This document shows positions 1 to 37,439 of a stretch of DNA of 64,000 bases, piece by piece (position 1 is the stretch's first letter; the number at the start of each line of letters is the position of its first letter). Source of the DNA: Eledone cirrhosa (taxonomy: Eukaryota); NCBI GenBank assembly GCA_964016885.1, contig OZ024764.1, positions 25,482,001 through 25,546,000 of the forward strand, given 5' to 3'. Position numbers and translations under genes: made by a program. Under the pieces are notes generated by a model that was given only the letters and a program-made list of their open reading frames with translations, was not told the origin of the DNA and made no database searches.

Positions 1-3000
1 GAAAAGAGAAGACAAAAGACAGAAGACTGAAGAGAGAAGACAAATGAGAGAAGATAGAAGAGAGAAGACAGGAGAAGACAGAAGAGAGAAGACAGAAGAC
101 TGAAGAGAGAAGACAGAAGACTGAATAGAGAAGACTGAAGAGTGAAGACAGAAGAGAGAAGACAGAAGTGAGAAGACAGAAGAGGGAAGACAGAAGATAG
201 AAGACAAAAGAGAGAAGACAGAAGACTGAAGAGAGAAGACAGATGAGAGAAGACAGAAGAGAGAAGACTGAAGAGAGAAAACAGTAGAGAGAAGAGAGAA
301 GGCTGAGCAAAAAGACAGAAGAGAGAAAACAGAAGAGAGAAGAGTGAAGAGAGAAGAGTGAAGAGAGATGAGAGAAGACAGAAAAGAGAAGACAGAACAC
401 AGAAGTGAGAAGACAGAAGAGAGAAGAGGTAAGACAGAAGAGAGAAGATTGAAGAGAGAAGACAGAACAGAGAAGTGAGAAGGGAGAAGACAGAATAGAG
501 AAGACACAAGAGAGAAGACATGAGAGAGAAAAGCGAAGAGAGAAGAGAGAAGACAGAAGAGAGAAGACTGAAGAGAGAAGACAGAAGGGAGAAGACTGAA
601 GAGAGAAGACAGAAGGGAGAAGACAGAACAGAGAAGATAGAAGACAGAAGACTGAATAGAGAAGACAGAAGAGGGAAGACAGAAGACATAAGAGAGAAGA
701 CTGAAGAGTGAAGACAAGAGAGAAGACAGAAGAGAGAAGACTGAAGAGAGAAGACAGAAGAGAGAAGATAGAAGAGAGATGACAGTAGAGAGAAGAGAGA
801 AGAGAGAAGACAGAAGAGAGAAGACAGAAGAGAGAAGATAGAAGAGAGAAGAATGAAGAGAGAAGACAAAAGAGAGGAGACAGAAGAGAGAAGACAGATG
901 AGAGAAGACAGAAGAGAGAAGACTGATGAGAGAAGACAGAAGACAGAAGACTGAAGAGAGAAGACAGAAGACTGAATAGAGAAGACAGAGGAGAGAAGAC
1001 AGAAAAGAGAAGACTGAAGAGAGAAGACAGAAGAGAGAAGACAGAAGAGAGAAGAGAGAAGACAGAAGAGAGAAGACAGAAGACAAAAGAGAGAAGACAG
1101 AAGAGAGAAGACTGAAGAGAGAAGACAGAAGAGAGAAGACTGAAGAGAGAAGACTGAAGGGAGAAGACTGATGAGCGAAGACTGAAGTGAGAAGACTGAT
1201 GAGCGAAGACTGAAGAGAGAAGACTGAAGAGAGAAGACAGAAGAGAGAAGACAGAAGAGAGAAGACAGAAGAGAGAAGACAGAAGAGAGAAGAGAGAAGA
1301 CAGAAGAGAGAAGACAGAAGACAAAAGAGAGAAGACAGAAGAGAGAAGACAGAAGAGAGAAGACAGAAAAGAGAAGACTGAAGAGAGAAGACTGAAGAGA
1401 GAAGACTGAAGAGAGAAGACAGAAAAGAGAAGACAGAAGAGAGAAGACTGAAGAGAGAAGACAGAAGAGAGAAGACAGAAGAGAGAAGACAGAAGAGAGA
1501 AGACAGAAGAGAGAAGACTGAAGAGAGAAGACTGAAGAGAGAAGATAGAAGAGAGAAGACAGAAGACAAAAGAGAGAAGACTGAAGAGAGAAGACAGAAG
1601 AGAGAAGACAGAAGAGAGAAGACTGAAGAGAGAAGACTGAAGGGAGAAGACTGATGAGCGAAGACTGAAGAGAGAAGACTGAAGAGAGAAGACAGAAGAG
1701 AGAAGACAGAAGAGAGAAGAGAGAAGACAGAAGACAGAAGAGAGAAGATAGAAGAGAGAAGACTGAAGAGAGAAGACTGAAGAGAGAAGACAGAAGAGAG
1801 AAGACAGAAGAGAGAAGACAGAAGAGAGAAGACTGAAGAGAGAAGACTGAAGGGAGAAGACTGATGAGCGAAGACTGAAGAGAGAAGACTGAAGAGAGAA
1901 GACAGAAGAGAGAAGACAGAAGAGAGAAGAGAGAAGACAGAAGACAGAAGAGAGAAGATAGAAGAGAGAAGACTGAAGAGAGAAGACTGAAGAGAGAAGA
2001 CAGAAGAGAGAAGACAGAAGAGAGAAGACAGAAGAGAAAAGACAAGACAGAGAAGACAGAACAGAGAAGACAGAACAGAGCAGACTGAAGAGAGAAGACA
2101 GAAGAGAGAAGATAGAAGAGAGAAAACAGAAGAGAGAAGACAGAAGAGAGAAGACAGAAGAGAGAAGACAGAAGAGAGAAGACTGAAGAGAGAAGACAGA
2201 AGAGAGAAGACAGAAGAGAGAAGACAGAAGAGAGAAGACAGAAGAGAGAAGACAGAAGAGAGAAGACAGAAGAGAGAAGATAGAAGAGAGAAAACAGAAG
2301 AGAGAAGACAGAAGAGAGAAGACAGAAGAGAGAAGACAGAAGAGAGAAGACAGAAGAGAGAAGAACGAAGAGAGAAGACTGAAGGGAGAAGACAGAAGAG
2401 AGAAGACAGAAGAGAGAAGACAGAAGAGAGAAGACAGAAGAGAGAAGACAGAAGAGAGAAGACTGAAGAGAGAAAACTAAAGGGAGAAGACTGATGAGCG
2501 AAGATTGAAGAGAGAAGACTGAAGAGAGAAGACAGAAGAGAGAAGACAGAAGAGAGAAGAGAGAAGACAGAAGAGAGAAGACAGAAGAGAGAAGACTGAT
2601 GAGCGAAGACTGAAGAGAGAAGACTGAAGAGAGAAGACAGAAGAGAGAAGACTGAAGAGAGAAGACAGAAGAGAGAAGACAGAAGAGAGAAGACAGAAGA
2701 GAGAAGACAGAAGAGAGAAGACAGAAGAGAGAAGACAGAAGAGAGAAGACTGAAGAGAGAAGACTGAAGAGAGAAGACTGAAGGGAGAAGACAGAAGAGA
2801 GAAGACAGAAGAGAGAAGACAGAAGAGAGAAGAGAGAAGACAGAAGAGAGAAGACAGAAGACAAAAGAGAGAAGACAGAAGAGAGAAGACTGAAGAGAGA
2901 AGACAGAAGAGAGAAGACTGAAGAGAGAAGACTGAAGGGAGAAGACTGATGAGCGAAGACTGAAGTGAGAAGACTGATGAGCGAAGACTGAAGAGAGAAG

Positions 3001-6000
3001 ACTGAAGAGAGAAGACAGAAGAGAGAAGACAGAAGAGAGAAGACAGAAGAGAGAAGACAGAAGAGAGAAGAGAGAAGACAGAAGAGAGAAGACAGAAGAC
3101 AAAAGAGAGAAGACAGAAGAGAGAAGACAGAAGAGAGAAGACTGAAGAGAGAAGATAGAAGAGAGAAGACAGAAGACAAAAGAGAGAAGACTGAAGAGAG
3201 AAGACAGAAGAGAGAAGACAGAAGAGAGAAGACTGAAGAGAGAAGACTGAAGGGAGAAGACTGATGAGCGAAGACTGAAGAGAGAAGACTGAAGAGAGAA
3301 GACAGAAGAGAGAAGACAGAAGAGAGAAGAGAGAAGACAGAAGACAGAAGAGAGAAGATAGAAGAGAGAAGACTGAAGAGAGAAGACTGAAGAGAGAAGA
3401 CAGAAGAGAGAAGACAGAAGAGAGAAGACAGAAGACAGAAGAGACAAGACAGAAGACAGAAGAGAGAAGACTAAAGAGAAAAGACAGAAGAGAGAAGACT
3501 GAAGAGAGAAGACAGAAGAGAGAAGAGAGAAGATTGAAGAGAGAAGACTTTAGAGAGAAAACAGAAGAGAGAAGACAGGGGAGAGAAGAGAGAAGACTGA
3601 AGAGAAAAGACAGAAGAGAGAAGGCAGAAGAGAGAATGAAGAGAAGAAGAGAGAAGACAGAAGAGAGAAAACAGAAGAGAGAAGACAGGGGATAGAAGAG
3701 AGAAGAGAGAAGACTGAAGAGAAAAGACAGAAGAGAGAAGGCAGAAGAGAGAAGAGAGAAGAGAGAAGAGAAAAGACAGAAGAGAGAAGAAAGACGACAG
3801 AAGAGAGAAGACAGAAGAGAAAAGACAGAAGAGAGAAGAGAGAAGACAGAAGACAGAAGAGAGAAGCCTGAAGAGTGGAGACTGAAGAGAGAAGACTGAA
3901 GAGAGAAGACAGAAGAGGAAAGACAGAAGACAGAAGAGAGAATACTGAAGAGAGGAGCCACAATAGAGAAGACAGAAGAGAGAAGACTGAAGAGAGAAGA
4001 CAGCAGAGAGAAGACAGAAGAGAGAAGACAGAAAAGAGAAGACAAAAGACAGAAGACTGAAGAGAGAAGACAAATGAGAGAAGATAGAAGAGAGAAGACA
4101 GGAGAAGACAGAAGAGAGAAGACAGAAGACTGAAGAGAGAAGACAGAAGACTGAATAGAGAAGACTGAAGAGTGAAGACAGAAGAGAGAAGACAGAAGTG
4201 AGAAGACAGAAGAGGGAAGACAGAAGATAGAAGACAAAAGAGAGAAGACAGAAGACTGAAGAGAGAAGACAGATGAGAGAAGACAGAAGAGAGAAGACTG
4301 AAGAGAGAAAACAGTAGAGAGAAGAGAGAAGGCTGAGCAAAAAGACAGAAGAGAGAAAACAGAAGAGAGAAGAGTGAAGAGAGAAGAGTGAAGAGAGATG
4401 AGAGAAGACAGAAAAGAGAAGACAGAACACAGAAGTGAGAAGACAGAAGAGAGAAGAGGTAAGACAGAAGAGAGAAGATTGAAGAGAGAAGACAGAACAG
4501 AGAAGTGAGAAGGGAGAAGACAGAATAGAGAAGACACAAGAGAGAAGACATGAGAGAGAAAAGCGAAGAGAGAAGAGAGAAGACAGAAGAGAGAAGACTG
4601 AAGAGAGAAGACAGAAGGGAGAAGACTGAAGAGAGAAGACAGAAGGGAGAAGACAGAACAGAGAAGATAGAAGACAGAAGACTGAATAGAGAAGACAGAA
4701 GAGGGAAGACAGAAGACATAAGAGAGAAGACTGAAGAGTGAAGACAAGAGAGAAGACAGAAGAGAGAAGACTGAAGAGAGAAGACAGAAGAGAGAAGATA
4801 GAAGAGAGATGACAGTAGAGAGAAGAGAGAAGAGAGAAGACAGAAGAGAGAAGACAGAAGAGAGAAGATAGAAGAGAGAAGAATGAAGAGAGAAGACAAA
4901 AGAGAGGAGACAGAAGAGAGAAGACAGATGAGAGAAGACAGAAGAGAGAAGACTGATGAGAGAAGACAGAAGACAGAAGACTGAAGAGAGAAGACAGAAG
5001 ACTGAATAGAGAAGACAGAGGAGAGAAGACAGAAAAGAGAAGACTGAAGAGAGAAGACAGAAGAGAGAAGACAGAAGAGAGAAGAGAGAAGACAGAAGAG
5101 AGAAGACAGAAGACAAAAGAGAGAAGACAGAAGAGAGAAGACTGAAGAGAGAAGACAGAAGAGAGAAGACTGAAGAGAGAAGACTGAAGGGAGAAGACTG
5201 ATGAGCGAAGACTGAAGTGAGAAGACTGATGAGCGAAGACTGAAGAGAGAAGACTGAAGAGAGAAGACAGAAGAGAGAAGACAGAAGAGAGAAGACAGAA
5301 GAGAGAAGACAGAAGAGAGAAGAGAGAAGACAGAAGAGAGAAGACAGAAGACAAAAGAGAGAAGACAGAAGAGAGAAGACAGAAGAGAGAAGACAGAAAA
5401 GAGAAGACTGAAGAGAGAAGACTGAAGAGAGAAGACTGAAGAGAGAAGACAGAAAAGAGAAGACAGAAGAGAGAAGACTGAAGAGAGAAGACAGAAGAGA
5501 GAAGACAGAAGAGAGAAGACAGAAGAGAGAAGACAGAAGAGAGAAGACTGAAGAGAGAAGACTGAAGAGAGAAGACAGAAGAGAGAAGACAGAAGAGAGA
5601 AGACAGAAGAGAGAAGACTGAAGAGAGAAGACTGAAGGGAGAAGACTGATGAGCGAAGACTGAAGAGAGAAGACTGAAGAGAGAAGACAGAAGAGAGAAG
5701 ACAGAAGAGAGAAGAGAGAAGACAGAAGACAGAAGAGAGAAGATAGAAGAGAGAAGACTGAAGAGAGAAGACTGAAGAGAGAAGACAGAAGAGAGAAGAC
5801 AGAAGAGAGAAGACAGAAGAGAAAAGACAAGACAGAGAAGACAGAACAGAGAAGACAGAACAGAGCAGACTGAAGAGAGAAGACAGAAGAGAGAAGATAG
5901 AAGAGAGAAAACAGAAGAGAGAAGACAGAAGAGAGAAGACAGAAGAGAGAAGACAGAAGAGAGAAGACTGAAGAGAGAAGACAGAAGAGAGAAGACAGAA

Positions 6001-9000
6001 GAGAGAAGACAGAAGAGAGAAGACAGAAGAGAGAAGACAGAAGAGAGAAGACAGAAGAGAGAAGATAGAAGAGAGAAAACAGAAGAGAGAAGACAGAAGA
6101 GAGAAGACAGAAGAGAGAAGACAGAAGAGAGAAGACAGAAGAGAGAAGAACGAAGAGAGAAGACTGAAGGGAGAAGACAGAAGAGAGAAGACAGAAGAGA
6201 GAAGACAGAAGAGAGAAGACAGAAGAGAGAAGACTGAAGAGAGAAAACTAAAGGGAGAAGACTGATGAGCGAAGATTGAAGAGAGAAGACTGAAGAGAGA
6301 AGACAGAAGAGAGAAGACAGAAGAGAGAAGAGAGAAGACAGAAGAGAGAAGACAGAAGAGAGAAGACTGATGAGCGAAGACTGAAGAGAGAAGACTGAAG
6401 AGAGAAGACAGAAGAGAGAAGACTGAAGAGAGAAGACAGAAGAGAGAAGACAGAAGAGAGAAGACAGAAGAGAGAAGACAGAAGAGAGAAGACAGAAGAG
6501 AGAAGACAGAAGAGAGAAGACTGAAGAGAGAAGACTGAAGAGAGAAGACTGAAGGGAGAAGACAGAAGAGAGAAGACAGAAGAGAGAAGACAGAAGAGAG
6601 AAGAGAGAAGACAGAAGAGAGAAGACAGAAGACAAAAGAGAGAAGACAGAAGAGAGAAGACTGAAGAGAGAAGACAGAAGAGAGAAGACTGAAGAGAGAA
6701 GACTGAAGGGAGAAGACTGATGAGCGAAGACTGAAGTGAGAAGACTGATGAGCGAAGACTGAAGAGAGAAGACTGAAGAGAGAAGACAGAAGAGAGAAGA
6801 CAGAAGAGAGAAGACAGAAGAGAGAAGACAGAAGAGAGAAGAGAGAAGACAGAAGAGAGAAGACAGAAGACAAAAGAGAGAAGACAGAAGAGAGAAGACA
6901 GAAGAGAGAAGACTGAAGAGAGAAGATAGAAGAGAGAAGACAGAAGACAAAAGAGAGAAGACTGAAGAGAGAAGACAGAAGAGAGAAGACAGAAGAGAGA
7001 AGACTGAAGAGAGAAGACTGAAGGGAGAAGACTGATGAGCGAAGACTGAAGAGAGAAGACTGAAGAGAGAAGACAGAAGAGAGAAGACAGAAGAGAGAAG
7101 AGAGAAGACAGAAGACAGAAGAGAGAAGATAGAAGAGAGAAGACTGAAGAGAGAAGACTGAAGAGAGAAGACAGAAGAGAGAAGACAGAAGAGAGAAGAC
7201 AGAAGACAGAAGAGACAAGACAGAAGACAGAAGAGAGAAGACTAAAGAGAAAAGACAGAAGAGAGAAGACTGAAGAGAGAAGACAGAAGAGAGAAGAGAG
7301 AAGATTGAAGAGAGAAGACTTTAGAGAGAAAACAGAAGAGAGAAGACAGGGGAGAGAAGAGAGAAGACTGAAGAGAAAAGACAGAAGAGAGAAGGCAGAA
7401 GAGAGAATGAAGAGAAGAAGAGAGAAGACAGAAGAGAGAAAACAGAAGAGAGAAGACAGGGGATAGAAGAGAGAAGAGAGAAGACTGAAGAGAAAAGACA
7501 GAAGAGAGAAGGCAGAAGAGAGAAGAGAGAAGAGAGAAGAGAAAAGACAGAAGAGAGAAGAAAGACGACAGAAGAGAGAAGACAGAAGAGAAAAGACAGA
7601 AGAGAGAAGAGAGAAGACAGAAGACAGAAGAGAGAAGCCTGAAGAGTGGAGACTGAAGAGAGAAGACTGAAGAGAGAAGACAGAAGAGGAAAGACAGAAG
7701 ACAGAAGAGAGAATACTGAAGAGAGGAGCCACAATAGAGAAGACAGAAGAGAGAAGACTGAAGAGAGAAGACAGCAGAGAGAAGACAGAAGAGAGAAGAC
7801 AGAAAAGAGAAGACAAAAGACAGAAGACTGAAGAGAGAAGACAAATGAGAGAAGATAGAAGAGAGAAGACAGGAGAAGACAGAAGAGAGAAGACAGAAGA
7901 CTGAAGAGAGAAGACAGAAGACTGAATAGAGAAGACTGAAGAGTGAAGACAGAAGAGAGAAGACAGAAGTGAGAAGACAGAAGAGGGAAGACAGAAGATA
8001 GAAGACAAAAGAGAGAAGACAGAAGACTGAAGAGAGAAGACAGATGAGAGAAGACAGAAGAGAGAAGACTGAAGAGAGAAAACAGTAGAGAGAAGAGAGA
8101 AGGCTGAGCAAAAAGACAGAAGAGAGAAAACAGAAGAGAGAAGAGTGAAGAGAGAAGAGTGAAGAGAGATGAGAGAAGACAGAAAAGAGAAGACAGAACA
8201 CAGAAGTGAGAAGACAGAAGAGAGAAGAGGTAAGACAGAAGAGAGAAGATTGAAGAGAGAAGACAGAACAGAGAAGTGAGAAGGGAGAAGACAGAATAGA
8301 GAAGACACAAGAGAGAAGACATGAGAGAGAAAAGCGAAGAGAGAAGAGAGAAGACAGAAGAGAGAAGACTGAAGAGAGAAGACAGAAGGGAGAAGACTGA
8401 AGAGAGAAGACAGAAGGGAGAAGACAGAACAGAGAAGATAGAAGACAGAAGACTGAATAGAGAAGACAGAAGAGGGAAGACAGAAGACATAAGAGAGAAG
8501 ACTGAAGAGTGAAGACAAGAGAGAAGACAGAAGAGAGAAGACTGAAGAGAGAAGACAGAAGAGAGAAGATAGAAGAGAGATGACAGTAGAGAGAAGAGAG
8601 AAGAGAGAAGACAGAAGAGAGAAGACAGAAGAGAGAAGATAGAAGAGAGAAGAATGAAGAGAGAAGACAAAAGAGAGGAGACAGAAGAGAGAAGACAGAT
8701 GAGAGAAGACAGAAGAGAGAAGACTGATGAGAGAAGACAGAAGACAGAAGACTGAAGAGAGAAGACAGAAGACTGAATAGAGAAGACAGAGGAGAGAAGA
8801 CAGAAAAGAGAAGACTGAAGAGAGAAGACAGAAGAGAGAAGACAGAAGAGAGAAGAGAGAAGACAGAAGAGAGAAGACAGAAGACAAAAGAGAGAAGACA
8901 GAAGAGAGAAGACTGAAGAGAGAAGACAGAAGAGAGAAGACTGAAGAGAGAAGACTGAAGGGAGAAGACTGATGAGCGAAGACTGAAGTGAGAAGACTGA

Positions 9001-11323
9001 TGAGCGAAGACTGAAGAGAGAAGACTGAAGAGAGAAGACAGAAGAGAGAAGACAGAAGAGAGAAGACAGAAGAGAGAAGACAGAAGAGAGAAGAGAGAAG
9101 ACAGAAGAGAGAAGACAGAAGACAAAAGAGAGAAGACAGAAGAGAGAAGACAGAAGAGAGAAGACAGAAAAGAGAAGACTGAAGAGAGAAGACTGAAGAG
9201 AGAAGACTGAAGAGAGAAGACAGAAAAGAGAAGACAGAAGAGAGAAGACTGAAGAGAGAAGACAGAAGAGAGAAGACAGAAGAGAGAAGACAGAAGAGAG
9301 AAGACAGAAGAGAGAAGACTGAAGAGAGAAGACTGAAGAGAGAAGATAGAAGAGAGAAGACAGAAGACAAAAGAGAGAAGACTGAAGAGAGAAGACAGAA
9401 GAGAGAAGACAGAAGAGAGAAGACTGAAGAGAGAAGACTGAAGGGAGAAGACTGATGAGCGAAGACTGAAGAGAGAAGACTGAAGAGAGAAGACAGAAGA
9501 GAGAAGACAGAAGAGAGAAGAGAGAAGACAGAAGACAGAAGAGAGAAGATAGAAGAGAGAAGACTGAAGAGAGAAGACTGAAGAGAGAAGACAGAAGAGA
9601 GAAGACAGAAGAGAGAAGACAGAAGAGAGAAGACTGAAGAGAGAAGACTGAAGGGAGAAGACTGATGAGCGAAGACTGAAGAGAGAAGACTGAAGAGAGA
9701 AGACAGAAGAGAGAAGACAGAAGAGAGAAGAGAGAAGACAGAAGACAGAAGAGAGAAGATAGAAGAGAGAAGACTGAAGAGAGAAGACTGAAGAGAGAAG
9801 ACAGAAGAGAGAAGACAGAAGAGAGAAGACAGAAGAGAAAAGACAAGACAGAGAAGACAGAACAGAGAAGACAGAACAGAGCAGACTGAAGAGAGAAGAC
9901 AGAAGAGAGAAGATAGAAGAGAGAAAACAGAAGAGAGAAGACAGAAGAGAGAAGACAGAAGAGAGAAGACAGAAGAGAGAAGACTGAAGAGAGAAGACAG
10001 AAGAGAGAAGACAGAAGAGAGAAGACAGAAGAGAGAAGACAGAAGAGAGAAGACAGAAGAGAGAAGACAGAAGAGAGAAGATAGAAGAGAGAAAACAGAA
10101 GAGAGAAGACAGAAGAGAGAAGACAGAAGAGAGAAGACAGAAGAGAGAAGACAGAAGAGAGAAGAACGAAGAGAGAAGACTGAAGGGAGAAGACAGAAGA
10201 GAGAAGACAGAAGAGAGAAGACAGAAGAGAGAAGACAGAAGAGAGAAGACTGAAGAGAGAAAACTAAAGGGAGAAGACTGATGAGCGAAGATTGAAGAGA
10301 GAAGACTGAAGAGAGAAGACAGAAGAGAGAAGACAGAAGAGAGAAGAGAGAAGACAGAAGAGAGAAGACAGAAGAGAGAAGACTGATGAGCGAAGACTGA
10401 AGAGAGAAGACTGAAGAGAGAAGACAGAAGAGAGAAGACTGAAGAGAGAAGACAGAAGAGAGAAGACAGAAGAGAGAAGACAGAAGAGAGAAGACAGAAG
10501 AGAGAAGACAGAAGAGAGAAGACAGAAGAGAGAAGACTGAAGAGAGAAGACTGAAGAGAGAAGACTGAAGGGAGAAGACAGAAGAGAGAAGACAGAAGAG
10601 AGAAGACAGAAGAGAGAAGAGAGAAGACAGAAGAGAGAAGACAGAAGACAAAAGAGAGAAGACAGAAGAGAGAAGACTGAAGAGAGAAGACAGAAGAGAG
10701 AAGACTGAAGAGAGAAGACTGAAGGGAGAAGACTGATGAGCGAAGACTGAAGTGAGAAGACTGATGAGCGAAGACTGAAGAGAGAAGACTGAAGAGAGAA
10801 GACAGAAGAGAGAAGACAGAAGAGAGAAGACAGAAGAGAGAAGACAGAAGAGAGAAGAGAGAAGACAGAAGAGAGAAGACAGAAGACAAAAGAGAGAAGA
10901 CAGAAGAGAGAAGACAGAAGAGAGAAGACAGAAAAGAGAAGACTGAAGAGAGAAGACTGAAGAGAGAAGACAGAAGAGAGAAGACAGAAGAGAGAAGACT
11001 GAAGAGAGAAGACTGAAGAGAGAAGATAGAAGAGAGAAGACAGAAGACAAAAGAGAGAAGACTGAAGAGAGAAGACAGAAGAGAGAAGACAGAAGAGAGA
11101 AGACTGAAGAGAGAAGACTGAAGGGAGAAGACTGATGAGCGAAGACTGAAGAGAGAAGACTGAAGAGAGAAGACAGAAGAGAGAAGACAGAAGAGAGAAG
11201 AGAGAAGACAGAAGACAGAAGAGAGAAGATAGAAGAGAGAAGACTGAAGAGAGAAGACTGAAGAGAGAAGACAGAAGAGAGAAGACAGAAGAGAGAAGAC
11301 AGAAGACAGAAGAGAGAAGACTC
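1..11323 (+). repeat. Purine-strand 7-mer satellite (GAAGAGA/GAAGACA/GAAGACT) with higher-order duplications
   Basis: Continuous 7-bp periodicity. Identical diverged landmarks recur at 520/4550/8321 and 3875/7646 (spacings 4030 and 3771 bp). Confidence 0.97.
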
Positions 11324-11469
11324 AATGTAGAATATGGAAAAAGACAACAAATGACAGAACATGACTGAAAATAGAAGAGACAGAAGAGGATTGGAGATAA
11401 AAGAGATGACAGATGCTTGAAGATGAGCAGGTTAAAAGAAAAGAAGCTACGTAAAATAAAGCAGTATAC

Positions 11470-11665
11470 TTTTGTGATTGAGATATTGGTAGCAGTGGGA
11501 CAGATGGTTGCAGGGGTGCTCTCCAACAACAAGGTCATCAAGGTCGGACAGCTTAATTTGGTCACCAATCACCACAAAGTCTTCACTCTTTAGCTTCAGT
11601 ATCCGCAGACTACCCAGGGGTGTGTGGCTGAGGTAGTTGATGATGGACGAGATTTGATAGATGAC
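11470..11665 (-). CDS. PKDCC: PKDCC/VLK-like gene, next coding exon (catalytic loop and metal-binding DLDD motif)
   Basis: Acceptor TTTCCTTTCTTCCACAG|GTC (AG at 11667-11666). Phase-0 translation VIYQISSIINYLSHTPLGSLRILKLKSEDFVVIGDQIKLSDLDDLVVGEHPCNHLSHCYQYLNHK matches PKDCC [44 protein letters not shown]..E.PC. The donor is uncertain: GTATAC at 11469 or GTAGCT ~19 nt further. Confidence 0.85.
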
Positions 11666-12266
11666 CTGTGGAAGAAAGGAAAATGGTTAATGATGGAGAG
11701 TGTTCTTAGGCCCCATTCGTTCATGGCTGACCCTGGGTTTTCACCTAGCTCCTCTCCTACACACAAGCCTTGGCAACGTGTTTGTTTGTGGAAGACCAGC
11801 AGTTTCCCATACCAGTCTCCCTTTCCACGCCAGCAATCATATCCAAGAGAAAGGCAAAGACCGATACAGCTTGGTATCAGTGACTTCTTCACCCACTCAT
11901 TCCTGGGAAGGTTGTTGGAGCAGCATCTTCAAACACTCCTAACAGGAAGCAACCATCTCTAATTGATCCCGGTGGATCCCCAAGGAAGACCAGCTAAGCT
12001 CATAGATGTTATGCATGCTACAAGTGGAGATGGTGTTTTAGTAGTTGTAGTGGTGGCAGTGGAGTGGTGGTGATAGTGATGGTGGTGCAGTAGATACCTC
12101 ACCACCAACAACAACAACCAGCACAAACTCCACCAACACCATACAACAGCTGAAGGCTAAAACAAACAACAATTTACAATGGGGTCTTATTTAACTGCAA
12201 GTTGTAGCTTGAACAAGGAAAACAACATATCTATATATGTATATATGTATATATATATGTATATTA

Positions 12267-12780
12267 TGTCAGGTCACTCTTGTGTGCTATTGATAACATG
12301 TGACCCAGTACAACTTATCTCATGCTCAGGTCGTTGGCGACTAAAACAACAAGCTTGGTGAGGAGGGTGATATTTGTACACCCTGCGGGAGGAAATACAA
12401 GACCCTGCAAAGGGCAGAGGAACTCAGCAGAGACAAGGACCATCCAAATAGTACTCTTTTTTTTTACCTGGGCATGAAAGGCCCCCAGTTGTTGTCACAA
12501 CACCTTTCTAGGAGAAGGGAAACTCTGAAAAAGAAAACCTGTGGCTTCAGAAGCATCCGATGATGTTGACCAGTTATCCTTTTCTGGTAATGTCTTCGAT
12601 GCTCAGAGAGTGGGATTGGTCGAGTGCAAGGCCTTTCCCCTCTTAAAAAACCTTCAAAGTACAGGCATTGCTTGTTGAGGGACTGTTACAGGTTTGTGTG
12701 GCTGGCCGTAGCCTAAAAGTGCACCAAACTGTATAACCTGACAAGCAATTGCAGCACTCTTAGCAGAGTTTGCAACCATC
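12267..12780 (+). mobile_element. Probable non-autonomous RTE-derived element (5'UTR-like)
   Basis: Unique block between (TA)n tracts containing CTAGGAGAAGGAAAACTCTGA, reminiscent of RTE 5'UTRs; no ORF. Confidence 0.35.
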
Positions 12781-12904
12781 ATGTTTGTATGTATACATGC
12801 ACATGCATACATACATATGTGTATATACACACACACACACATATATATATATAGACATGTATATCAACACAAATATATATATTTGCATATATATATATAT
12901 ATAT

Positions 12905-13095
12905 AATTGTTTCTACTTTTGGCACAAGGCCAGCAATTATCTCAGTGCATTACTGGTACTTTATTTTATCGACCCCGTAAGGATGAAAGGCAAAGTTAAC
13001 CTAGGCGGGATTTGAACTCAGAATGGCAAGGGCCGTAACTCTATGTGTCAAAGCATGGCGTCCAACCCTCTACCGATACTGCCAATTCACCGCCC
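12905..13095 (-). mobile_element. tRNA-derived SINE with Nin/Deu-like central domain
   Basis: A box TGGCAGTATCGG, B box GAGTTCAAATCC, then GCCTTTCATCCTTACGGGGTCGATAAAATAAAGTACCAG; several copies in the window. Confidence 0.8.
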
Positions 13096-13241
13096 TATAT
13101 ATATATATATATGCAAAAGTTTTATTTACTTGTTGTGTTACAACAAGTAAATATTTTATAACTGATATAAAGCACTCGACAAGTTTTTGGAGTAGATATA
13201 CGATATTAAACAAATGGAAACTATATTTATAAAACCATATT

Positions 13242-13307
13242 TATTTCATTATACATATTTCAGGGATACCATATTAAAAATATGGCATGCCTTCGTCAGA
13301 TAAAATA
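13242..13307 (-). ncRNA. Type I hammerhead ribozyme motif
   Basis: tattttat-CTGACGA-long stem II (aggcatgccatatt/aatatggtatccct)-GAAA-TATGTA-TA-atgaaata; same family as 44901 and 62994. Confidence 0.7.
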
Positions 13308-13597
13308 CAATATATAAACAGTTTTATAAATAATTTTGACATACCATAATATCAGCGACCATTAAATTAGGAGGCTGCCTTGATATATATAGATATATAT
13401 GATATATATATATTTATATATATTGCTCACTCTAATACCCCAAGTATCGAGAGGTTAAACGCTGATGATGATATATGTGTGTTGTGTTTGATGAAACCAA
13501 GAGCTTTAAAGTCAACACCTTCAGGTTTATGTGAAATATCCCAGCTCTTCTGTCTAATACAGATTACATAAACTCCATGACCTTGTCGAAACAATAA

Positions 13598-13895
13598 TCT
13601 ATATATATAAAACTGAGGATGTCTGTGTGTGTGTGTGAGTTTGAATCCCTAAAACTCGAGAACCACCCAACCGACTGTTTTCAAACTTTACACATGTAAT
13701 ACTTACGGTCCTGTGAGTGTTCTGAGCAAAAACAATTTCAAATTTTCAATGCCCTAAGCACCGCATTAGGCGATTTAGCGATCTCTCTATATAATTCTTA
13801 GTCTTTCTCTTTTTAGATAGATACATAGATATAATGTCACGCCCTTATAATATCTGTCTGTATGTCTGGCTGTCTGCATTACTTCACTTCCCTGA

Positions 13896-13970
<75 letters not shown>

Positions 13971-14581
13971 AATCCCTAAAACTCGAGAAGTACCGGACCG
14001 ATGTTTTTCTAACTTTACATGTGTAGCAAGAGGCTGGACTGGTGTAATTCCTTAAAGGCTTATTATACTATGAACATTTCAAAGACCAAGTTCAGTATGA
14101 ATCCGGCGACATTCGAAATTTAACAAAGGAATATAATAGACACAATCCAAGGGGCTGAAAAGGCAGAGAAATGAGAAGGCAGCCAAACATTTAGCAGTTT
14201 CTAGTTCGGTCAGCCTCCTAAAACTCTGTGATTGCTTGCTTTTTGTTTGTAATGTAATACAGCCAAAAGGGCGCATAATGGGAAAATACTTTGAATAGAA
14301 GTTGACCCTGAAATGGGAATACAAATGGAATAAAACAAGTTTTGCGTAATTCGAAGCACGGGTTCCTGAGATATGGGGTTTTACTGGGTACCTTTATAAA
14401 CAGAGAGAGAGAAGGATAGAGAGGAAGAGATAGTGGTTGTGAGAGAGACATAGGGAGAGGGAGAGGAGTCACAGAAAAAAGAAGGGAAGAGAGAGAGAGC
14501 TGGTGGTGAGTGTGTGTATATATATATATGTGTGTGTCTATGACCAGTGTATATAGATCACAGACACCCACATATATATAT

Positions 14582-14613
<32 letters not shown>

Positions 14614-15116
14614 GTTGATTTAAAATATATAAATATATATGTTGATTTAAATATAAATATATATGTTGATTTAAATATGTTGATTTAAAACTGCACTATC
14701 CACAAGTGTTTTTTAGCCTTCATATCATGTCCTCCTGTTTTATCTGATGAAAACACAAATATTATTGCATGATGATGTTTGTTTTTGAAATGCGCATAAT
14801 AAAATACATGGAACTCCTTTAACCATCTTTTGATCTTATATATTATGTATACTCCAGTCCTACAAACTGTAGAGTGCTTCTTATCCGATATCTGCATTGC
14901 TTTATTGTACTACAATAAAACTCACCTCCTACATATATATATATATGTATACACACACACACATTTATATATATATATATACATACACACACGTATATAT
15001 ATATATGGGCCTTCCCTTCCAGTTTCATATCACATTATATACATGTCTGTGTATATTTTAATTATTTAAACATTATTTTTAAGTGAACGTAACGCAACGG
15101 TTCACAGGTGGTCTAG
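13598..15116 (+). mobile_element. Non-autonomous Helitron
   Basis: A|TCTATATATATAAAA 5' end followed by a microsatellite; 3' hairpin GTGAAC...GTTCAC then CTAG|T. Related pieces at 20398-20826 (-) and 56608-56870. Confidence 0.75.
14736..14806 (+). ncRNA. Type I hammerhead ribozyme motif (Penelope pLTR-like insert nested in the Helitron)
   Basis: tgttttat-CTGATGA-stem II-GAAA-TGCGCA-TA-ataaaata; homologous to 45330-45399. Confidence 0.7.
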
Positions 15117-15136
15117 TATTATATATATACTAGACG

Positions 15137-15285
15137 TAGCAGAGGTGGTGAGAGCAGACCTCGGATCACTGAAGCTCACAGTAGAGATGACAAAGAACCG
15201 TGACAAGTGGAGAGAAGCTGTGCTGAATAGGACCCATCCCACCCTTGCAAACAGGGAAAAGTGGACGTAAAATGAAGATGATGAT
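15137..15285 (+). mobile_element. RTE LINE 3' end fragment (family A)
   Basis: Encodes EVVRADL...RDKWREAV, then a (GAT)n tail; matches the end of the 16.5-20 kb copy. Confidence 0.65.
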
Positions 15286-15485
15286 ACACACCCATATTCA
15301 CACACCACTGTATAAATATATATATATGTATACATACACACACACACATTTACACATGTATATATACACATACATACATTCATATCTACAAAATTATGTT
15401 CAATTAGTATGTGTAACAGCTTGTACGAAAAGTGGAAACTGCTACGGCTCTCACTTTCCGTAAAGATGGCTGTATATTTGTTGTA

Positions 15486-16395
15486 CGAGGTGTGTCAGAA
15501 AAGTTCCAGGTCTGATGTCACAAAAGATTTATTTCAAACCCAAACTTCACACTAAGAGTTTTCTCCTCCAAACTAATCCCCCTGGAGTCTAATGCACTTT
15601 TCCATCCTTTTCTGCCACACTTGCATGTACTCCTGGAAGGATTCTTCCGGGATCCTCCGCAATTCCGTCATCACAGCCTTTTTGATGTCATCCACGTCTT
15701 CAAGACGGGCCCCCTCCGGGTCGTACTCGAAGATCCATGACTCATCACCGGTGATAACTGTCCCTAGCAAGTCTGGTACAGTTTTAAGACGCTCGAGGAT
15801 GTCCTGGCACACTTGCATGTGTCGACCCTTCTGGTCATCGTTCAGCAGTTTTGGCACCATCTTCGCACAGACTTTCCGCATGTCCAAATCTTCAGTGAGA
15901 ATCTTCCAGATGCTGTCCCGATTCTTGCCCAGCTCCTTTGCCATCAGTCGAACAGACAATCGCTACGCACCATCTGCCTGACGCGCTCAACGTTGACCTC
16001 AGTCCTGGTTGCTGAGGGCGTTCCGCTCCTGGGATCATCTTCCACGTCCTCACGTCCTTTTTTAAACCTCTTGCACCACTAAAAACCACGTGAGCGTGAC
16101 ATCGTCTAATCTCTATACACTTGCTGCAGCAATCCCAGTGCTTCTGACGGAGTTTTCCCCAACCGTACCAGAAGCTTCAAGTTTGTTCGTTGCTCTGTGC
16201 TCATTGCTTGACGACCTGAAACAGAGGACATGTATATAAAATTATGAAGAAAAAAGTTTGATCGCTGCAGAGAGCTAAGATTACAGTTACAGACTCCAGG
16301 GGGATTACTTTAAAGGAGAAAACTCTTAGTGTGAAGTTTGGGTTTGAAATAAATCTTTTGTGACATCAGTCCTGGAACTTTTCTGACACACATCG
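15486..16395 (-). mobile_element. Mariner DNA transposon, internally deleted, ~105-bp TIRs, TA TSD
   Basis: TA|CGAGGTGTGTCAGAAAAG...CTTTTCTGACACACATCG|TA. Transposase remnants: EQRTNLK, DDPRSG.P, KMVPKLL, ITGDESW..YDPE joined directly to the C-terminal helix. Stops are present; the second Asp and YSPDLAP region are missing. Confidence 0.93.
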
Positions 16396-16559
16396 TATAA
16401 TTATATATATTAGTGTGTATGTGACTTGTAACTGTGTTAACAATTCTATGTATCAGCCATTATGGTTCCTACTTCCCACCCACTTGCCCCACATCCACCA
16501 CATTCGGTATACATGTCCGACACTGTATGCTAACCACTCCCTCATGAATATATCATAGA

Positions 16560-19500
16560 ACAGACAAGGGGTGGATGGAGGCTTCGTAAGTTCTAATGTA
16601 GGCAACTCGTCTAGGAAAGCTACCACTCCGAATAAATTGGTGCAGGGTAGAGAAGTCCTCTAAATCCAGTAAGACAACTTTCCTAGTGCTGGTGGCATGA
16701 ATAAAAGCGCACAGTCCATGCTGTAAAATGGAGGAGTGGATAGGGCCCCTGAGTCCAGTAAGACGACCTCTCTAGTGCTGGTGGCACGAACAAAAGCACC
16801 CAGTCCATACTGTAAAGTGGTGCTGCTGTTAGGAAGGGCATCCAACCAGTATATATACTACTGCCAAACACTATGAACACAACGATTGAAATTTGCAACA
16901 ACTGCATAAACAGCAATAACACTAACCATGTTAGAACTGCGCACGGTAGTGGGGTGGCTAGTGAGGCCATGTGCGAGAACCGCCCGACCGTCATCAAGCA
17001 ATCACACAAAAACAACTGCGTAAACAGCAATAACTCTAACCATGTCAGGGCTGTGCACAGTAGTGGAGTGGCTAGTGAGGCCATGTGTGAGAACTCCACA
17101 ACTGTCATCAAGCAATCGCACAACAGGAAAAAGAACGAGATGTCGCATCTCAGAGTTGCCACACTTAATGTTGGCACTCTAACGGGTAGATCTGGTGAAA
17201 TAGTGGAGATGTTGGAGAGAAGGCATGTGGATGTGTGCTGTGGGCAAGAGATGAGGTGGGGAGATGCCTCTGCAAGACTAATCACAGGTAAACATCGTAG
17301 TTATAAGCTTTTCTGGGTGGGTAATGATGATGGGTTGGGTGGGGGTGGGTATATTACTGGCTGAGAGATGAATCAACAAGACAATAGAGGTAGTTAGAGC
17401 TAGTGATAGAATAATTAAATATTTAAGCTTAGATTAGTTGTAGGCAAGAGACTATGCTCCCCAGGCAGGCCTAGGTAAAGAAGAGAAAGACGGCTTTTAC
17501 GAGCAACTTTTACAGACAGCCTCAATGACAGAGGACGGAGACATCGTTATGCTAGCAGGGGACTTCAATGGTCATGTTGGACAGCTCCAGGATGGATACA
17601 CTGGGGTACATGGTGGGCACAGTTACGGCTCAAGAAATGAAGGAGTGAGGCTTCTTGAATTTTGTGATGCAAATGCACTAACCATTTGCAACACTAACTT
17701 CCAGAAACCTGCCAACCACCTAATAACCTACAAATCAGGTGAGCACATAAGCCAGATTGACTTCTTACTAGTTAGACAGCGAGACAGGCAGATGGTGTCA
17801 AATACCAAAAGAATGTACCCCACAGCATAAGTTAGTTGTTAGTGACATCTCAGTAAGCAAGAGAAAGAATGAGACATACAGGCAGGTGTGGAAAAGAAAG
17901 GTCTGGAAGCTAAAAGACGTTTCATTAAAATATAAATTTAGCAAAGCCCTTCAAGATGTGTACGGTGATAAAGAAGACGATTTAGAGTTGAATGACATAG
18001 ATGATAACTGGAATTTCTTGCGTGACAACTTACTGCAGGCTACTGAAGAAACTTGTGACTGGAGCAGAGCTTCAGCCAGAGAGAGAGAGTGACCTGGTGG
18101 TGGAACAGCACGGTAGATAAGGCCTTTAGAGACAAAAGACTGGCATGGAAAGCTTGGAAAAATGGTGGAAGTAAGTAGAGACGGATGCACAGCCGCTAAG
18201 AGAGAAGATAGGCAGTGTGTCAGTGCTTATCAGGATGTTGTTGGAGATAAGTGTGTCTGGAATGATCCTGGTGTACTTAGTGTCACGAATGATCAGAAAA
18301 AGGAGGCCTGGAAATGTCATTATGAGAGACTGATGAATGTGGAGAACGAAGGGGACAGAGAGGAATTACCCCCAGTAGACACGACAGAGGGACCAGCTAT
18401 TGAGATTGACAAATATAGGGTCTAAGAGGTGATTAAGGAAATGAAGAATGGTAAGGCTGCTGGACTGTCGGAGATAGTTGCTAAGATGCTGAAGGCATCA
18501 GGGGACGTAGGCACTAAACTGGTTGCACGCATCATCAATCAGGCTATATATGGTGATGTCATACCCAAAGACTGGTGCAACAGTATTCTCATAAATTGCT
18601 ACAAAGGTAAAGGGGATGCTCTGGAGCGGAGCAATTATAGGGGTATAAAACTGATAGATCAGGTTATGAAAGTGGCAGAAAGGATATTAGCACAACTAAT
18701 TAGAGAAAGGATCAAACTAGATGAGATGCAGTTTGGTTTTGTGGCTGGGAAAAGTACAACAGTTGTCCTCTTCTTAGTGAGGAAACTATAAGAGGTTCTT
18801 AGAGAAGAATAAGCCACTATACTTAGCCTTTGTTGACCTAGAGAAGGCCTTTGATAGGGTACCTCGATCTGTCATCTGGTGGTCCCTAAGGAAACTAGGT
18901 GTAGAAGAATGGCTTGTGAGGACAGTGCAAGCTATGTACAGGGGTGCTGTCAGTAAAGTGAGAAGAGGAATGGAGTTTAGTGAGGAATTCCAGATACAAT
19001 AGGAGTACATCAAGGTTCAGTCCTCAGCCTGCCCTTGTTCATTATAGTCCTCCAAGCCATAACAGAGGAGTTTAAGACTGGCTGCCCATGGGAACTTCTC
19101 TATGCTGATGATCTGTTTCTTATAGCAGAATCAGTAGAGGAGCTAGAGAATAAATTCTGGCTATGGAAACAGCAGTTGGAAGCAAGAGGACTGAGAGTGA
19201 ACCTAGCTAAGACAAAAGTGTTGATGAGTAGAAAAGAGGACAAAACTCTGATTCCATCAGGGAAATGGCCATGTTCGATATGTATGAAAGGAACTGGCAT
19301 AAATTCCATAAAATGTACGCAATGTATATCTTGGGTACACAAGAGATGTAGTGGGATAGCAGGCAAACTAACAGGTAGGGAGAACTACGTATGCAGTAGA
19401 TGTACAGGGAAAATTGGCAGTAGTAATTGCAGTGATAGACTCATTTTTCCAAAGCAGGTGGGTTCTATAGAAGTGGTTGATAGCTTCCTGTACCTAGGTG

Positions 19501-19990
19501 ATAAGATTAGCATGGGAGGGGGGTATTCTGAGGCCATAGTATCTAGAATAAGGATGGGTTGGAAGAAGTTTAGGGAGCTGCTTCCTCTGTTGACAAAGAA
19601 GGGTTTCTCCCTGCGTTCAAAAGGATGGTTATATGATGCCTGTGTGAGATGAGCAATGATGCATGGTAGTGAGACATGGGCAGTAACTGCAGAGGATATG
19701 CGACGGCTGGAGAGAAATGAAGCGAGTATGCTCCGATGGATGTGCAGTGTCAATGTGCGTGAATGACCAAGCATAGACGAGTTGAGAAAGAAACTGAGTA
19801 TAAGAGGGATAAGTTGTGGTGTGCAGGAGAGAAGGCTGAGATGGTATGGACTTGTGATGCACATGGAGGATGACCACTGGGTAAAGAAGTGCCAAGAAAT
19901 CCCAGTGGAGGAAAGAACCAATAGAGGAAGACCATGAAAAACATGGGCGGAGGTGGTGAGGGCAGACCTCAGATGATGATGATGATGATT
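16560..19990 (+). mobile_element. RTE-clade LINE, near full length but decayed (APE endonuclease, RT, PHD finger), family A
   Basis: LRVATLNVGTL, QEMRW, AGDFNGHVG, SQIDF (APE); NYRGIKL, QFGF, FVDLEKAFD, LYADD (RT); C4HC3 finger; (GAT)n tail; multiple stops and frameshifts. Confidence 0.95.
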
Positions 19991-20077
19991 CATACAAACA
20001 TACATACATTTATTATTATCAGAGCCATAGAGAAGCTGTCTTCTTGGGCTACTATCCTAAAGTTAAATACAGAGGAG

Positions 20078-20235
20078 GACTCTATGCCAAGAACATGGAT
20101 GGGTTGAAGAAAAATCTTGACCTGGTTACAACATTCTCAAAGGATATAGGAATGGAGTTTGGCCAAGATAAATGTTCATATATGATTGTACAGCAGGGAA
20201 AAACTACAATCCAATCTAACATTTTTATCAATGGC
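20078..20235 (+). mobile_element. R4/Dong-like non-LTR RT fragment
   Basis: LYAKN...FSKDIGMEFGQDKC matches the post-YxDD segment of R4-type RTs. Confidence 0.6.
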
Positions 20236-20397
20236 CGAACTGTTTCATCAATATCTGCCGACCCCACAGTTTTATGCCTGAAAAAAACTTTACATAGAAT
20301 TTGAAATTGGTGAAAATCATCAAAATCTTGATTTCCAATATAGGCCAACCCCTTCCACCATCGATTTGTCATATATTCCTCAGCTTATATTTGAGTA

Positions 20398-20826
20398 CTA
20401 GACCACCCTTGACCAGTTGGGTCACGTTCACTTAAAAATATTTTTAAATAATTATAACATACACAGACATGTATATAATATAAAATGAAATTGGAAGGCC
20501 CATATATATATGTGTGTGTGTATATATGTATGTATATACGTATGTGTGTGTGTATATATATATATATGTGGGTATGTGTGACCTATATACGCTGGTCACA
20601 CATAGACACACACACTATCTCTTTCCCTCTATCTTTCTTTCTCACTATTTATAAAGGTACCCAGTAAACCCCATATCTCAGGAACCTGTGCTCTGCTTTA
20701 CACAAAACTTGTTTTATTCCATATGTATCCCCATTTCAGGGTCAACTTCCTTTCAAACTATTTCCCCATTGTGCCCCCTTTTGCCTGTATTAAATAACAG
20801 ACAAGACACAATCACAGAGTTTTAGT
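20398..20826 (-). mobile_element. Helitron 3' portion, same family as 13598-15116
   Basis: Reverse-complement match to ~14220-14580 plus ~14935-15116, ending in CTAG; lacks the hammerhead-bearing insert. Confidence 0.7.
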
Positions 20827-21185
20827 AGTATATATATGGTATATAGTGCTGGTACCCACTTCCTGGCCTCAATAATGCAGTGTGTCCTTGAGCAAGTCAG
20901 TTTATTTCATGTTGCTCCAGTCCACTCTGCTGGAAGAAAGGAAATGAGTTGCAATGAAACTGGTGCCAAGCTGTAACAGCTTTTCTTTTTCCCTCGGACA
21001 ACATATATAGTGTATATATAGTGTATATATAGTATGTATATAATATATATATATAGTGTATATATAGAATGTATATAATATATATAGTGTATATATGGTA
21101 TGTATATAATATATATATAGTGTATATATAGTATGTATATAATATATATATATAGTGTATATATAGTATGTATAATATATATATA

Positions 21186-24100: not shown

Positions 24101-24462
24101 CAGTCCGGATTGGGGTGCATACGCAGATATTACTGTCACAGTAGTTCTATTTAGGACAAGTCTTATTTTAATTATTCTGTCATTCACTCTATTTACGTCT
24201 ATTATCTTATCCACCCATTTTTCTGCTAACATGATTCCTACCCACCCAGCCCATTGTCATCCCCCCCCCCCCCAGAAAAGCTTATAGCATCGTTTTTTAC
24301 CCACAATGAATCTAGCAGACCCACTCCTCCACCTGGTCTCTTGGATACAGCAAACATCAACCTCCTTACGTTCAAGCATTTCTACAACCTCGTTAGAGCG
24401 ACCTTTTAAGGTGCCTACATTCATGGTACCAACTCTGAAGTTTTGGATTGCGTTTGGTGGGT
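21186..24462 (-). mobile_element. RTE-clade LINE (family B), APE-RT-PHD, decayed with internal deletions
   Basis: ORF pieces 23459-24232 (SAYAPQ, GDLNGH, QVDY, HRLI), 22836-23411, 22489-22806 (GVHQGSVLSP) and 21556-22410; 3'UTR with GTTAGGAAGGGCATCCAGCC and a (GAT)n tail. Confidence 0.95.
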
Positions 24463-24847
24463 GGGAATATGGTGTATATATAGTATGTATATAATATATA
24501 TAGTGTATATATAGTCTGTATTTAATATATATATATAGTCTATATATAGTATGTATATAATATATATAGTGTGTATATAGTCTGTATATATAGTATGTAT
24601 ATAATATATATATAGTGTATATATAGTATGTATATAATATATATATATATATGGTGTATATATAGTATGTATATAATATATGTATATAGTGTATATATAG
24701 TATGTATATAATATATATATAGTGTATATATAGTATGTATATAATATATATATATATATAGTGTATATATAGTATGTATATAATATATTTGTTATGTCAC
24801 TGGTGCCAAGCAGTATGACATCATAAATAGAGTATATATGATGTATA

Positions 24848-26579: not shown

Positions 26580-26751
26580 TTATATATAGTATGTATATAA
26601 TATATATATATATATATATCCAGGGAGTGTATTACCACAGCAGAGGTCCGAGGAGCTTGTGATTCCAGAGTCAAGCCAGATCAATACATGAGCTGATCAA
26701 TAGTGAAACAATCAATAAACCTAATGAAGACATAACAAATCGTACTTGTAT

Positions 26752-28055
26752 TCATCATCATCATCATCGTTTAACGTCTATCTTCCAGGCTAGCATGGGT
26801 TTAGACGGGAATTGTCCCACGTGAGGCAAGATTGGTCGGGTGACCGTGTCTTGATCATATAGGAGTGTCTGGCAGGTTTTCTACAGCTGGATGCCCTTCC
26901 TAACACCAACCACGTTTACTGTGTGGACTGGGAGGTTTTTACCATGTTACCTACATGGCCACATTACAGCATGGAATGTGTGTTTTTTTGTCATGACATC
27001 TACACGACCTCATTTATTTAGGACTGGATGTTGTGGTACCAACATAAATTTACAGAAAAGGGGGTGGTGTAGATGGGGTGGGGGAGTTGGGGTAGTGGAT
27101 TGGGGTGTATATTTGGTTAGGAGGTGCCTACTGTGTGTAGCTTTCGCTTTGTACTTAGGCAAGGGGGGGGGGTCTTCTATATTATTGCGTAGCGCCAAAG
27201 ATCTCGGTCCAGTGACATTGTCTTAGAGAGGTGTAAGTGTGTAAGATCGGAATTTATCAAATCGTCCCAGGATTTTCTGGATCTGCCTACTCCGTGGCTA
27301 CCGTCTATTTTGATCGCCCTGCACTTTTTTATACAGCTGTCGTCTTTCATGTGCATCACGTGACCATACCAACGTAGTCTTCTCTCGAGTAAACAGCATG
27401 CATGCTTCGTTCCTCTCTAGTCTGCACTGATCCTTTGCACACAATGCCCAGGTCTCACTGCCATGTAACATTGCTGTTTGTATGCAGGCATCATACAGTC
27501 TGCCTTTCACTTTTAGGGAGAACCCTTTAGCGGCCAATAGTGGTATAAGCTCTCTGAACTGTTTCCATCCCGTTCTGACTCTGACTACTGTACTTTCAGA
27601 GCACCCTCCTCCACTGCTGATTTTGTCACCCAGGTAACGGAAGCTGTCCAATATTTCTATAGAACCATCTGGGCAATGGAATGAGCTAGTATCCTGTGGG
27701 CACTTGCTACTACTTATTGCACCTGAGCACCAGCCACATATAAAATCTAGATAGTTTACCTGTGATCCCACTACATCTTTTATTCACCCATACTTTGCAT
27801 TTGGGACATAATATGGAGTTTCTGCCTACTCATTTCCTACACACTGAGTATGGCCATTTCCAAGAGGGGACCAGTGCCCTATTTTCCTTCCTTCATACTA
27901 GAACTTTAGTCATAGACAGGTTAATTTTAAAGCCTTTTGATTCTAGGCCATGCTTCCATTTTTGGAATTTCTTCTCTAGTTCAGCTATGAGAGTTAGATC
28001 ATCAGCGTATAGAAGTTCCAATGAGCAGCCGGTCTTAAACTCCTCTGTTATAGCC
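26752..28055 (-). mobile_element. RTE LINE family B, 5'-truncated
   Basis: LLYADDL, PHD region, FRYLGD, MLHGSETW, 3'UTR and (GAT)n tail. Confidence 0.92.
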
Positions 28056-28452: not shown

Positions 28453-28528
28453 ATCATTAATAATAATAATAGATTTGTTAGTAAACAAACAGCCAGTATA
28501 AAGCTGTGCCATGCCGATGGCTTTGAGG

Positions 28529-37358: not shown

Positions 37359-37439
37359 ATTGGAATAGGTAAATATTTAAATTATATTTTTTAATTTATT
37401 TTAAAAAAATGTTTGAATCTTGCTTGTTCTGCTCATCTC

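Follow-up and report, generated by a model that had tools for sequence, protein, structure and literature searches.

The gene and its first two coding exons

The minus strand of the window, the whole 64,000-nt stretch of DNA analysed, carries the first two coding exons of a gene related to the secretory-pathway kinase PKDCC. The first (46555..47373, minus strand; 273 codons) encodes a basic N-terminus, a predicted signal anchor, a stem and the kinase N-lobe, and the second (11470..11665, minus strand; 196 nt) encodes helix E, the catalytic loop, the motif DLDD and the Cys-rich start of the activation segment. They are separated by a phase-0 intron of 34,889 nt with GT...AG ends (11666..46554, minus strand), which holds many repeats and retroelement fragments. 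The second intron, of phase 1, begins within the window (1..11469, minus strand) and consists there almost entirely of a 7/14-nt tandem repeat.

Exon 1 is an uninterrupted frame that ends at a GTAAG donor and is 73% and 59% identical to two orthologous exon read-throughs. Exon 2, likewise uninterrupted, starts at 11665, is preceded by a pyrimidine tract and CAG, and is 78% identical to Octopus bimaculoides XP_014789357, the closest named relative, which makes a cephalopod the likely source of the DNA. Splicing was read from the loose ends of the contigs of run X2, which together with X3 and X4 belongs to one study that may be the source of the window DNA itself. In these contigs exon 1, exon 2 and a third exon beyond the window are joined with zero differences, and both splice junctions of exon 2 are crossed: the letters of the loose end at 11669 are those that close exon 1, and the one at 11470 runs on, in frame, into what comes next in XP_014789357. 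A tblastn search of intron 1 found no additional family exon, and neither exon 3 nor a C-terminal match was found in the 64,000-nt window. The start of exon 3 is known only from the X2 loose end; exon 3 and any later exons are located past the window end.

The predicted transmembrane signal anchor occupies about residues 21-39 (47257..47313, minus strand) and would give the protein a type II topology. Its Kyte-Doolittle hydropathy has a 19-residue mean of 2.03, with the peak within residues 21-43, and a comparable N-terminal peak (1.8-2.6) is present in 12 of the 13 full-length relatives described below. Within 47370-47393 (minus strand), a likely splice acceptor lies 20 nt 5' of the start codon, and directly after it an out-of-frame ATG opens an upstream reading frame of 7 codons whose stop overlaps the main ATG.

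The tandem repeat inside intron 2 extends over 11.3 kb (window 5-11321, TRF) and contains an exact duplication of 3,176 nt, starting at 2400 with an offset of 3,771 nt, which represents a higher-order repeat or else a duplication introduced during assembly. Minisatellites with units of 69, 48 and 72 nt lie at 28711-32963, 57909-58685 and 59999-61429, respectively, and broken LINE-type open reading frames resembling reverse transcriptase and endonuclease (translations judged by eye) occur on both strands at about 17400-23400, 38400-43400, 53650-54630 and 61390-62020.

The catalytic loop and the ATP site

Relatives were collected with a profile of exon 1 and the two orthologous read-throughs, which matched 108 of 1.84 billion representative proteins, PKDCC-like proteins being the next matches after the family itself. 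These 108, together with P0002, P0004 and the joined exons of the window, gave an alignment of 111 rows. With 36 fragments that fall short of the catalytic loop left out, 18 family rows, picked by rank, architecture and tree position, were compared with 57 others; of six among the 57 that were looked up, four have clusters that bear the name PKDCC or PKDCC-like, and the other two are an uncharacterised and an unnamed row. Pfam gave no match for the two exons or their three closest pieces, phmmer with exon 1 found no match in the PDB, an Atlas search with exon 1 returned weak kinase leads only, all under 0.9, and none of the 353 pattern matches that the O. bimaculoides piece gave in metagenomes was a relative.

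Codon 24 of exon 2 (11594..11596, minus strand) is AAG and encodes Lys297, which in this alignment falls in the catalytic-Asp column of the PKDCC/POMK-type kinase domain. From an SPLGS-like motif to DLDD, the window protein aligns without gaps to rows named PKDCC or PKDCC-like (P0110, P0084, P0060 and P0039). No alternative letters occur over 11596-11594 in X2, X3 or X4, all of one study, and with the same codon in each run a sequencing error was rejected. Asp occupies this column in 0 of the 18 family rows and in 54 of the 57 PKDCC-like rows (Fisher p 1.4e-14, a value that overstates independence because the rows are related). In its place the family has eight different residues (K9 R2 Q2 G S H L N), basic in 11 of the 18 rows and non-basic in the other seven. 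XP_014789357 has Arg at this position, and run X1, which comes from another, related organism, has AAT, encoding Asn, and differs from the window in 20 letters over 124 nt. Nine of the 11 X1 differences listed are silent, the Lys297 codon being one of the two replacements. Given so variable a column, Lys297 was rejected as a conserved catalytic residue.

The Gly-rich loop is degenerate as well. It reads LSTSDRKYV (46870..46896, minus strand), with Ser at both of the Gly-loop columns, so that GxG is absent; Gly is found at these two columns in 2/18 and 3/18 family rows, against 52/57 and 56/57 of the others. The ATP and metal ligands are mostly kept. The window protein has the beta2 Lys166 within the degenerate loop (46878-46876; Lys in 14/18 family rows), the beta3 Lys181 at the ATP-binding lysine position (46831..46833, minus strand; Lys in 13/18, Arg in 3), the alphaC Glu214 (46732..46734, minus strand; Glu in 16/18) and DLDD at residues 314-317 (11534..11545, minus strand), the DFG-equivalent metal-binding motif, whose first Asp is present in 14/18 family rows and 55/57 others. 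At the second-metal-ligand position the window protein has Asp302 (11579..11581, minus strand), a conserved residue specific to the family: Asp is found here in 16 of the 18 family rows and in one of the 57 others, the PKDCC-like rows having His, Gln or Asn. A register shift that would make Asp302 the base was rejected. Since the loop is ungapped against the PKDCC-named rows and has no POMK-type insertion, and since Asp302 stands in the metal-ligand column, the loop offers no alternative base.

Losses of individual ligands are scattered among the relatives. The limpet protein P0019 has Thr at the beta3 position and Gln at the alphaC position, and P0018, P0032, P0053 and P0072 are without the first Asp of DLD. 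Such independent erosion of ATP- and metal-binding residues is what would be expected if catalysis were not under selection.

The original prediction had been made from the letters of the window and a list of its open reading frames, and much of it stands. Both exons are open with good splice sites, as it had said, with donor, pyrimidine tract and X2 junctions in agreement; Lys (AAG) is at the catalytic base, in a column placed by the ungapped alignment; Asp is at the downstream Gln/Asn position; LSTSDRKYV replaces the Gly-rich loop; and the beta3 Lys, alphaC Glu and DLDD are retained. No Asp appears at the codon in X2-X4 or at the column in the family rows. What did not survive is any significance of Lys as such: it is not conserved across orthologues, and the proposed alternative of a rewired active site loses its central residue in a column this variable. 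A conserved pseudokinase is favoured over a Lys-based rewired enzyme because the Lys is not conserved, the catalytic Asp and the Gly-rich loop are lost, and the ATP and metal ligands are mostly kept.

A family with a three-domain build

Thirteen full-length relatives of 859-995 residues were found, all uncharacterised: 11 in a mollusc clade, one from the sponge Oscarella and one from amphioxus. Nine mollusc relatives carry names, from Haliotis, Patella, Ylistrum, Sinanodonta, Aplysia, Bulinus, Candidula, Elysia and Babylonia. All 13 share two further conserved blocks after the first domain. The folds were predicted on the limpet relative P0019 rather than on the window protein, with AlphaFold2 (mean pLDDT 71, pTM 0.43). 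Residues 132-412 of this model match POMK (Z 17.7, rmsd 4.8, 240 aligned) in a tie with several typical kinases, and POMK is the best solved match of this front domain both by sequence profile (E 3.4e-6) and by Foldseek. The middle module, of 93 residues and pLDDT 91, has a PAN/apple fold (best Z 9.0); its top structural rows include apple domains of HGF, kallikrein and microneme proteins, some of its matches are lectins (2ll4, 2yil), and by sequence it matches the apple domains of factor XI (E 2.6e-4). Residues 598-921 match Fam20C and Fam20A (Z 18.6-18.9, rmsd 4.2-4.6, 271-282 aligned), Fam20-fold matches overall reaching Z 17.6-18.9. By sequence profile this rear domain finds hydra Fam20 first (E 1.2e-4) and also Fam20A (E 3.1e-3), and its Atlas neighbours are Fam20B, FJX1 and FAM198 at 0.90-0.93; Pfam Fam20C gave no match for it. 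On the predicted model, then, the full-length relatives are a PKDCC-type fold followed by a PAN/apple domain and a Fam20-type fold.

The best Pfam family match for the full-length relatives is PIP49_C, above cut-off in 6 of the 13 and in neither of the window's separate exons. As PIP49_C is above cut-off in PKDCC-like rows too, it is not diagnostic of FAM69/DIPK.

The window gene probably retains the PAN and Fam20-fold half, which would lie outside the window. The O. bimaculoides model XP_014789357 stops at 183 residues, and the clade member P0032 (445 residues) is without most of this half. Truncated gene models are common in the family: in Batillaria the two halves stand under the neighbouring locus tags BaRGS_025285 and BaRGS_025283. 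A search for short C-terminal pieces gave two matches among 155 candidates, one of them from Batillaria and neither identifiable as cephalopod. The locus had originally been called a PKDCC paralogue. The relationship to PKDCC, the splicing and the loss of the Asp all hold, but a simple paralogue it is not, since all 13 full-length relatives add the PAN and Fam20-fold domains.

In a tree of 43 rows, the window protein belongs to a clade of 15 rows with 100/100 support, all of them without the catalytic Asp. Its own row has a long branch with 43% of columns filled, and its highest identity is 43% over 188 columns. The PKDCC-named rows P0084 and P0110 pair apart from this clade. The sponge and amphioxus rows pair with each other (97/87) and join the 15-row clade weakly (76/54). 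A tree of 73 rows, from which the window row is absent, places both outside the clade of molluscs (3 changes, with a single group in 0% of bootstrap trees). Both trees are unrooted and comprise rows other than POMK, FAM69, DIA1R and vertebrate PKDCC. Because the join is weak in the first tree and absent from the second, a common origin of the sponge and amphioxus members with those of molluscs rests mainly on the three-domain build.

The rear domain, too, is without conserved catalytic residues. Its register was set by two short stretches aligned to hydra Fam20, the second below significance alone, with residue numbering from passages of PMC5865150, and the position of the catalytic Asp therein rests partly on spacing rather than on a full residue-level alignment. 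The columns of the hydra Asp152 and Glu157, which form an ion pair, are acidic in 2/13 and 0/13 full-length rows; the metal Asp column has Asp in 3/13, and the catalytic-loop region (columns 796-810) has Asp in at most 3/13 rows at any column. The likely beta3 column, in a register taken from a motif, has Lys in 1/13. An Asp two residues past the metal site (column 818) is conserved in 11/13. From these residues, the rear domain is likely dead too.

Decay is uneven between the two domains. In the sponge protein P0053 the front domain is entirely without DLD, and in the rear domain the likely beta3 Lys and the metal Asp survive; the mollusc rows have the reverse pattern. Modelling the P0019 Fam20-fold domain as a homodimer gave a score of 0.00, which weighs neither for nor against.

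Function, alternatives and relation to known kinases

We favour, with a probability of roughly 0.6, a membrane-anchored lumenal pseudokinase that acts as a scaffold or allosteric regulator rather than by phosphorylating. That the gene is maintained is indicated by the spliced contigs, by the predominance of silent differences in X1 and by the 100/100 clade that includes the window protein. The protein would reside in the ER and Golgi or at the cell surface with its domains facing the lumen. Its first domain may bind ATP and metal through the Lys, Glu, DLDD and the gained Asp302 without transferring phosphate, so that the nucleotide would serve as a conformational or stabilising ligand. The cephalopod protein probably continues into PAN and Fam20-fold domains like those of other molluscs. 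Tethered to the membrane, it could dock PKDCC-like or Fam20 kinases that are active in the secretory pathway, or the substrates of these kinases, much as Fam20A does with Fam20C, and PAN would add a further arm for binding protein or glycan. Fam20A is described as activating Fam20C in sections of PMC7948968 and PMC5865150. Of the two readings first offered for the locus, a maintained lumenal pseudokinase thus remains the best, given the splicing and the family-wide loss of Asp, and a kinase with an active site rewired around Lys has been given up.

Two gains count against the pseudokinase reading, as judged from conservation: Asp302 and the column-818 Asp of the rear domain could both serve chemistry. 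The family could consist of atypical or weak enzymes in which Lys166/Lys181, Asp302 and DLDD hold ATP and two metals and which, without a protein base, transfer phosphate or another part of ATP to an acceptor that has a low pKa or assists as substrate, such as a sugar hydroxyl or tyrosine. The window protein has all the ATP and metal ligands for this, and Asp302 is nearly absent outside the family. There is also a precedent, POMK having been deemed a pseudokinase, according to the portion of PMC5142810 that deals with it, until activity was shown despite its non-canonical motifs. POMK, an active glycan kinase, nevertheless retains a catalytic Asp, displaced in a loop five residues longer (same portion of PMC5142810), and the family is without that insertion. 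With the base column freely variable, the Gly loop lost and several members short of the beta3 Lys, alphaC Glu or DLD Asp, we consider such an enzyme unlikely.

A second alternative dispenses with both catalysis and kinase regulation, making both kinase clefts binding sites for phosphorylated or sulfated products, such as phospho-glycan linkers or phosphotyrosine, so that the protein, with PAN, would be a reader or lectin acting in cargo sorting or retention. The basic residue at the base column of most family rows fits this idea, as do the two glycan kinases, POMK and hydra Fam20, among the nearest solved relatives and the lectins among the PAN matches. It is set back by the seven rows that are non-basic at that column and by the Asn of X1, and we regard it as distinctly improbable.

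A-to-I RNA editing is common in coleoid cephalopods, and the codons would permit it to restore an acidic residue, AAG becoming Glu and the AAT of the X1 relative becoming Asp. The spliced X2 contig is unedited, contigs being prone to drop rare variants; members from outside the cephalopods have no Asp either, and the loss of the Gly loop would stand in any case, all of which leaves very little room for this explanation. An assembly error or a decaying PKDCC copy, suggested by the microsatellite with its exact duplication beside exon 2 and by downstream exons that lie outside the window, is scarcely credible given the same codon in three runs, the spliced junctions, the mostly silent divergence and the family-wide loss of Asp.

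We tentatively propose, at a little under even odds, an ancient animal family present in a sponge, in molluscs including cephalopods and in amphioxus, in which the two unrelated folds, of PKDCC/POMK type and Fam20 type, flank a PAN domain behind one membrane anchor and both are dead. If so, a lumenal double pseudokinase could link or modulate the two arms of extracellular phosphorylation, kinase families that are customarily kept apart would become physically joined, and invertebrate Fam20 and PKDCC-like kinases would gain a candidate regulator. Conservation from sponge to amphioxus and throughout molluscs would also make non-catalytic control of extracellular phosphorylation ancient; the secretory-pathway pseudokinases of the cited literature, Fam20A and the predicted DIA1R, are vertebrate and single-domain. 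The Asp gains conserved in both sites also make the family a candidate for unexpected ATP chemistry, as with POMK.

A family that appears to join two different secretory-kinase folds in a three-domain build, each fold probably inactive, is likely new here. Neither the family nor six of its accessions is described in the literature searched, which was largely other than subscription papers and supplements. The text portions of PMC3696010 and PMC5896498 consulted name no such family, and their supplementary trees and CLANS maps could hold unlabelled members; the latter divides the secreted-kinase group into three branches, FAM69, DIA1 and PKDCC, with none like the present family in those portions. 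The family stands outside PKDCC, POMK and FAM69 proper, whose catalytic-loop features it does not share.

With PKDCC/VLK/SgK493 and the invertebrate PKDCC-like proteins the window protein has in common an N-terminal hydrophobic anchor, the beta2 Lys, DLD, an ungapped catalytic loop and a Cys pattern; an extra beta2 Lys and a DLD in place of DFG are given for PKDCC in parts of 10.64898/2026.02.19.706771. It differs in the absence of the catalytic Asp and Gly-rich loop, in the Asp at the second-metal position and in forming a 100/100 clade of its own, and its full-length relatives are about 500 residues longer, with PAN and the Fam20 fold. POMK/SgK196 is the best solved match of the first domain and has DLD, and the family differs from it in having neither the five-residue insertion nor the Asp. 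FAM69/DIPK kinases have, in excerpts of PMC3696010, an EF-hand insertion and an active-site Asp of the MCD type; the window protein has no Asp at the base column and, in the aligned domain, no insertion relative to the PKDCC-like rows. DIA1R/CXorf36, a predicted FAM69/DIPK pseudokinase of the secretory pathway that is without the catalytic Asp and is vertebrate-only (excerpts of PMC3696010), belongs to the same wider group and shares the missing Asp, but is single-domain; its loss appears independent of that in the present family, as far as the literature describes it.

The C-terminal domain of the relatives shares its fold with Fam20A, Fam20B/C, FJX1 and GASK1/FAM198, and Fam20A provides the model for a non-catalytic role. 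Fam20A, as characterised in sections of PMC7948968, is a single-domain vertebrate protein without one key acidic residue, whereas the relatives conserve few of the site residues and carry the domain as a fusion, C-terminal to one of PKDCC type. The relatives thereby have two kinase folds in one chain. Tandem kinase and pseudokinase proteins such as JAK (JH2-JH1) and obscurin are cytosolic and contain two domains of the typical fold, one of them active. The relatives differ in that their folds are of PKDCC type and Fam20 type, have no conserved base and are predicted to be lumenal.

Outside the family, the crinoid protein P0063 (Anneissia japonica XP_033115485, 390 residues), which is PKDCC-like, combines a Lys in the catalytic-Asp column with a degraded DLD and is, by its sequence, apparently an independent pseudokinase. 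The PKDCC-like rows P0039-P0111 form several well-supported invertebrate subgroups, and at the second-metal position most of the PKDCC-like rows (33/57) have His rather than Gln; the subgroups and the prevalent His suggest a larger and less charted invertebrate expansion.
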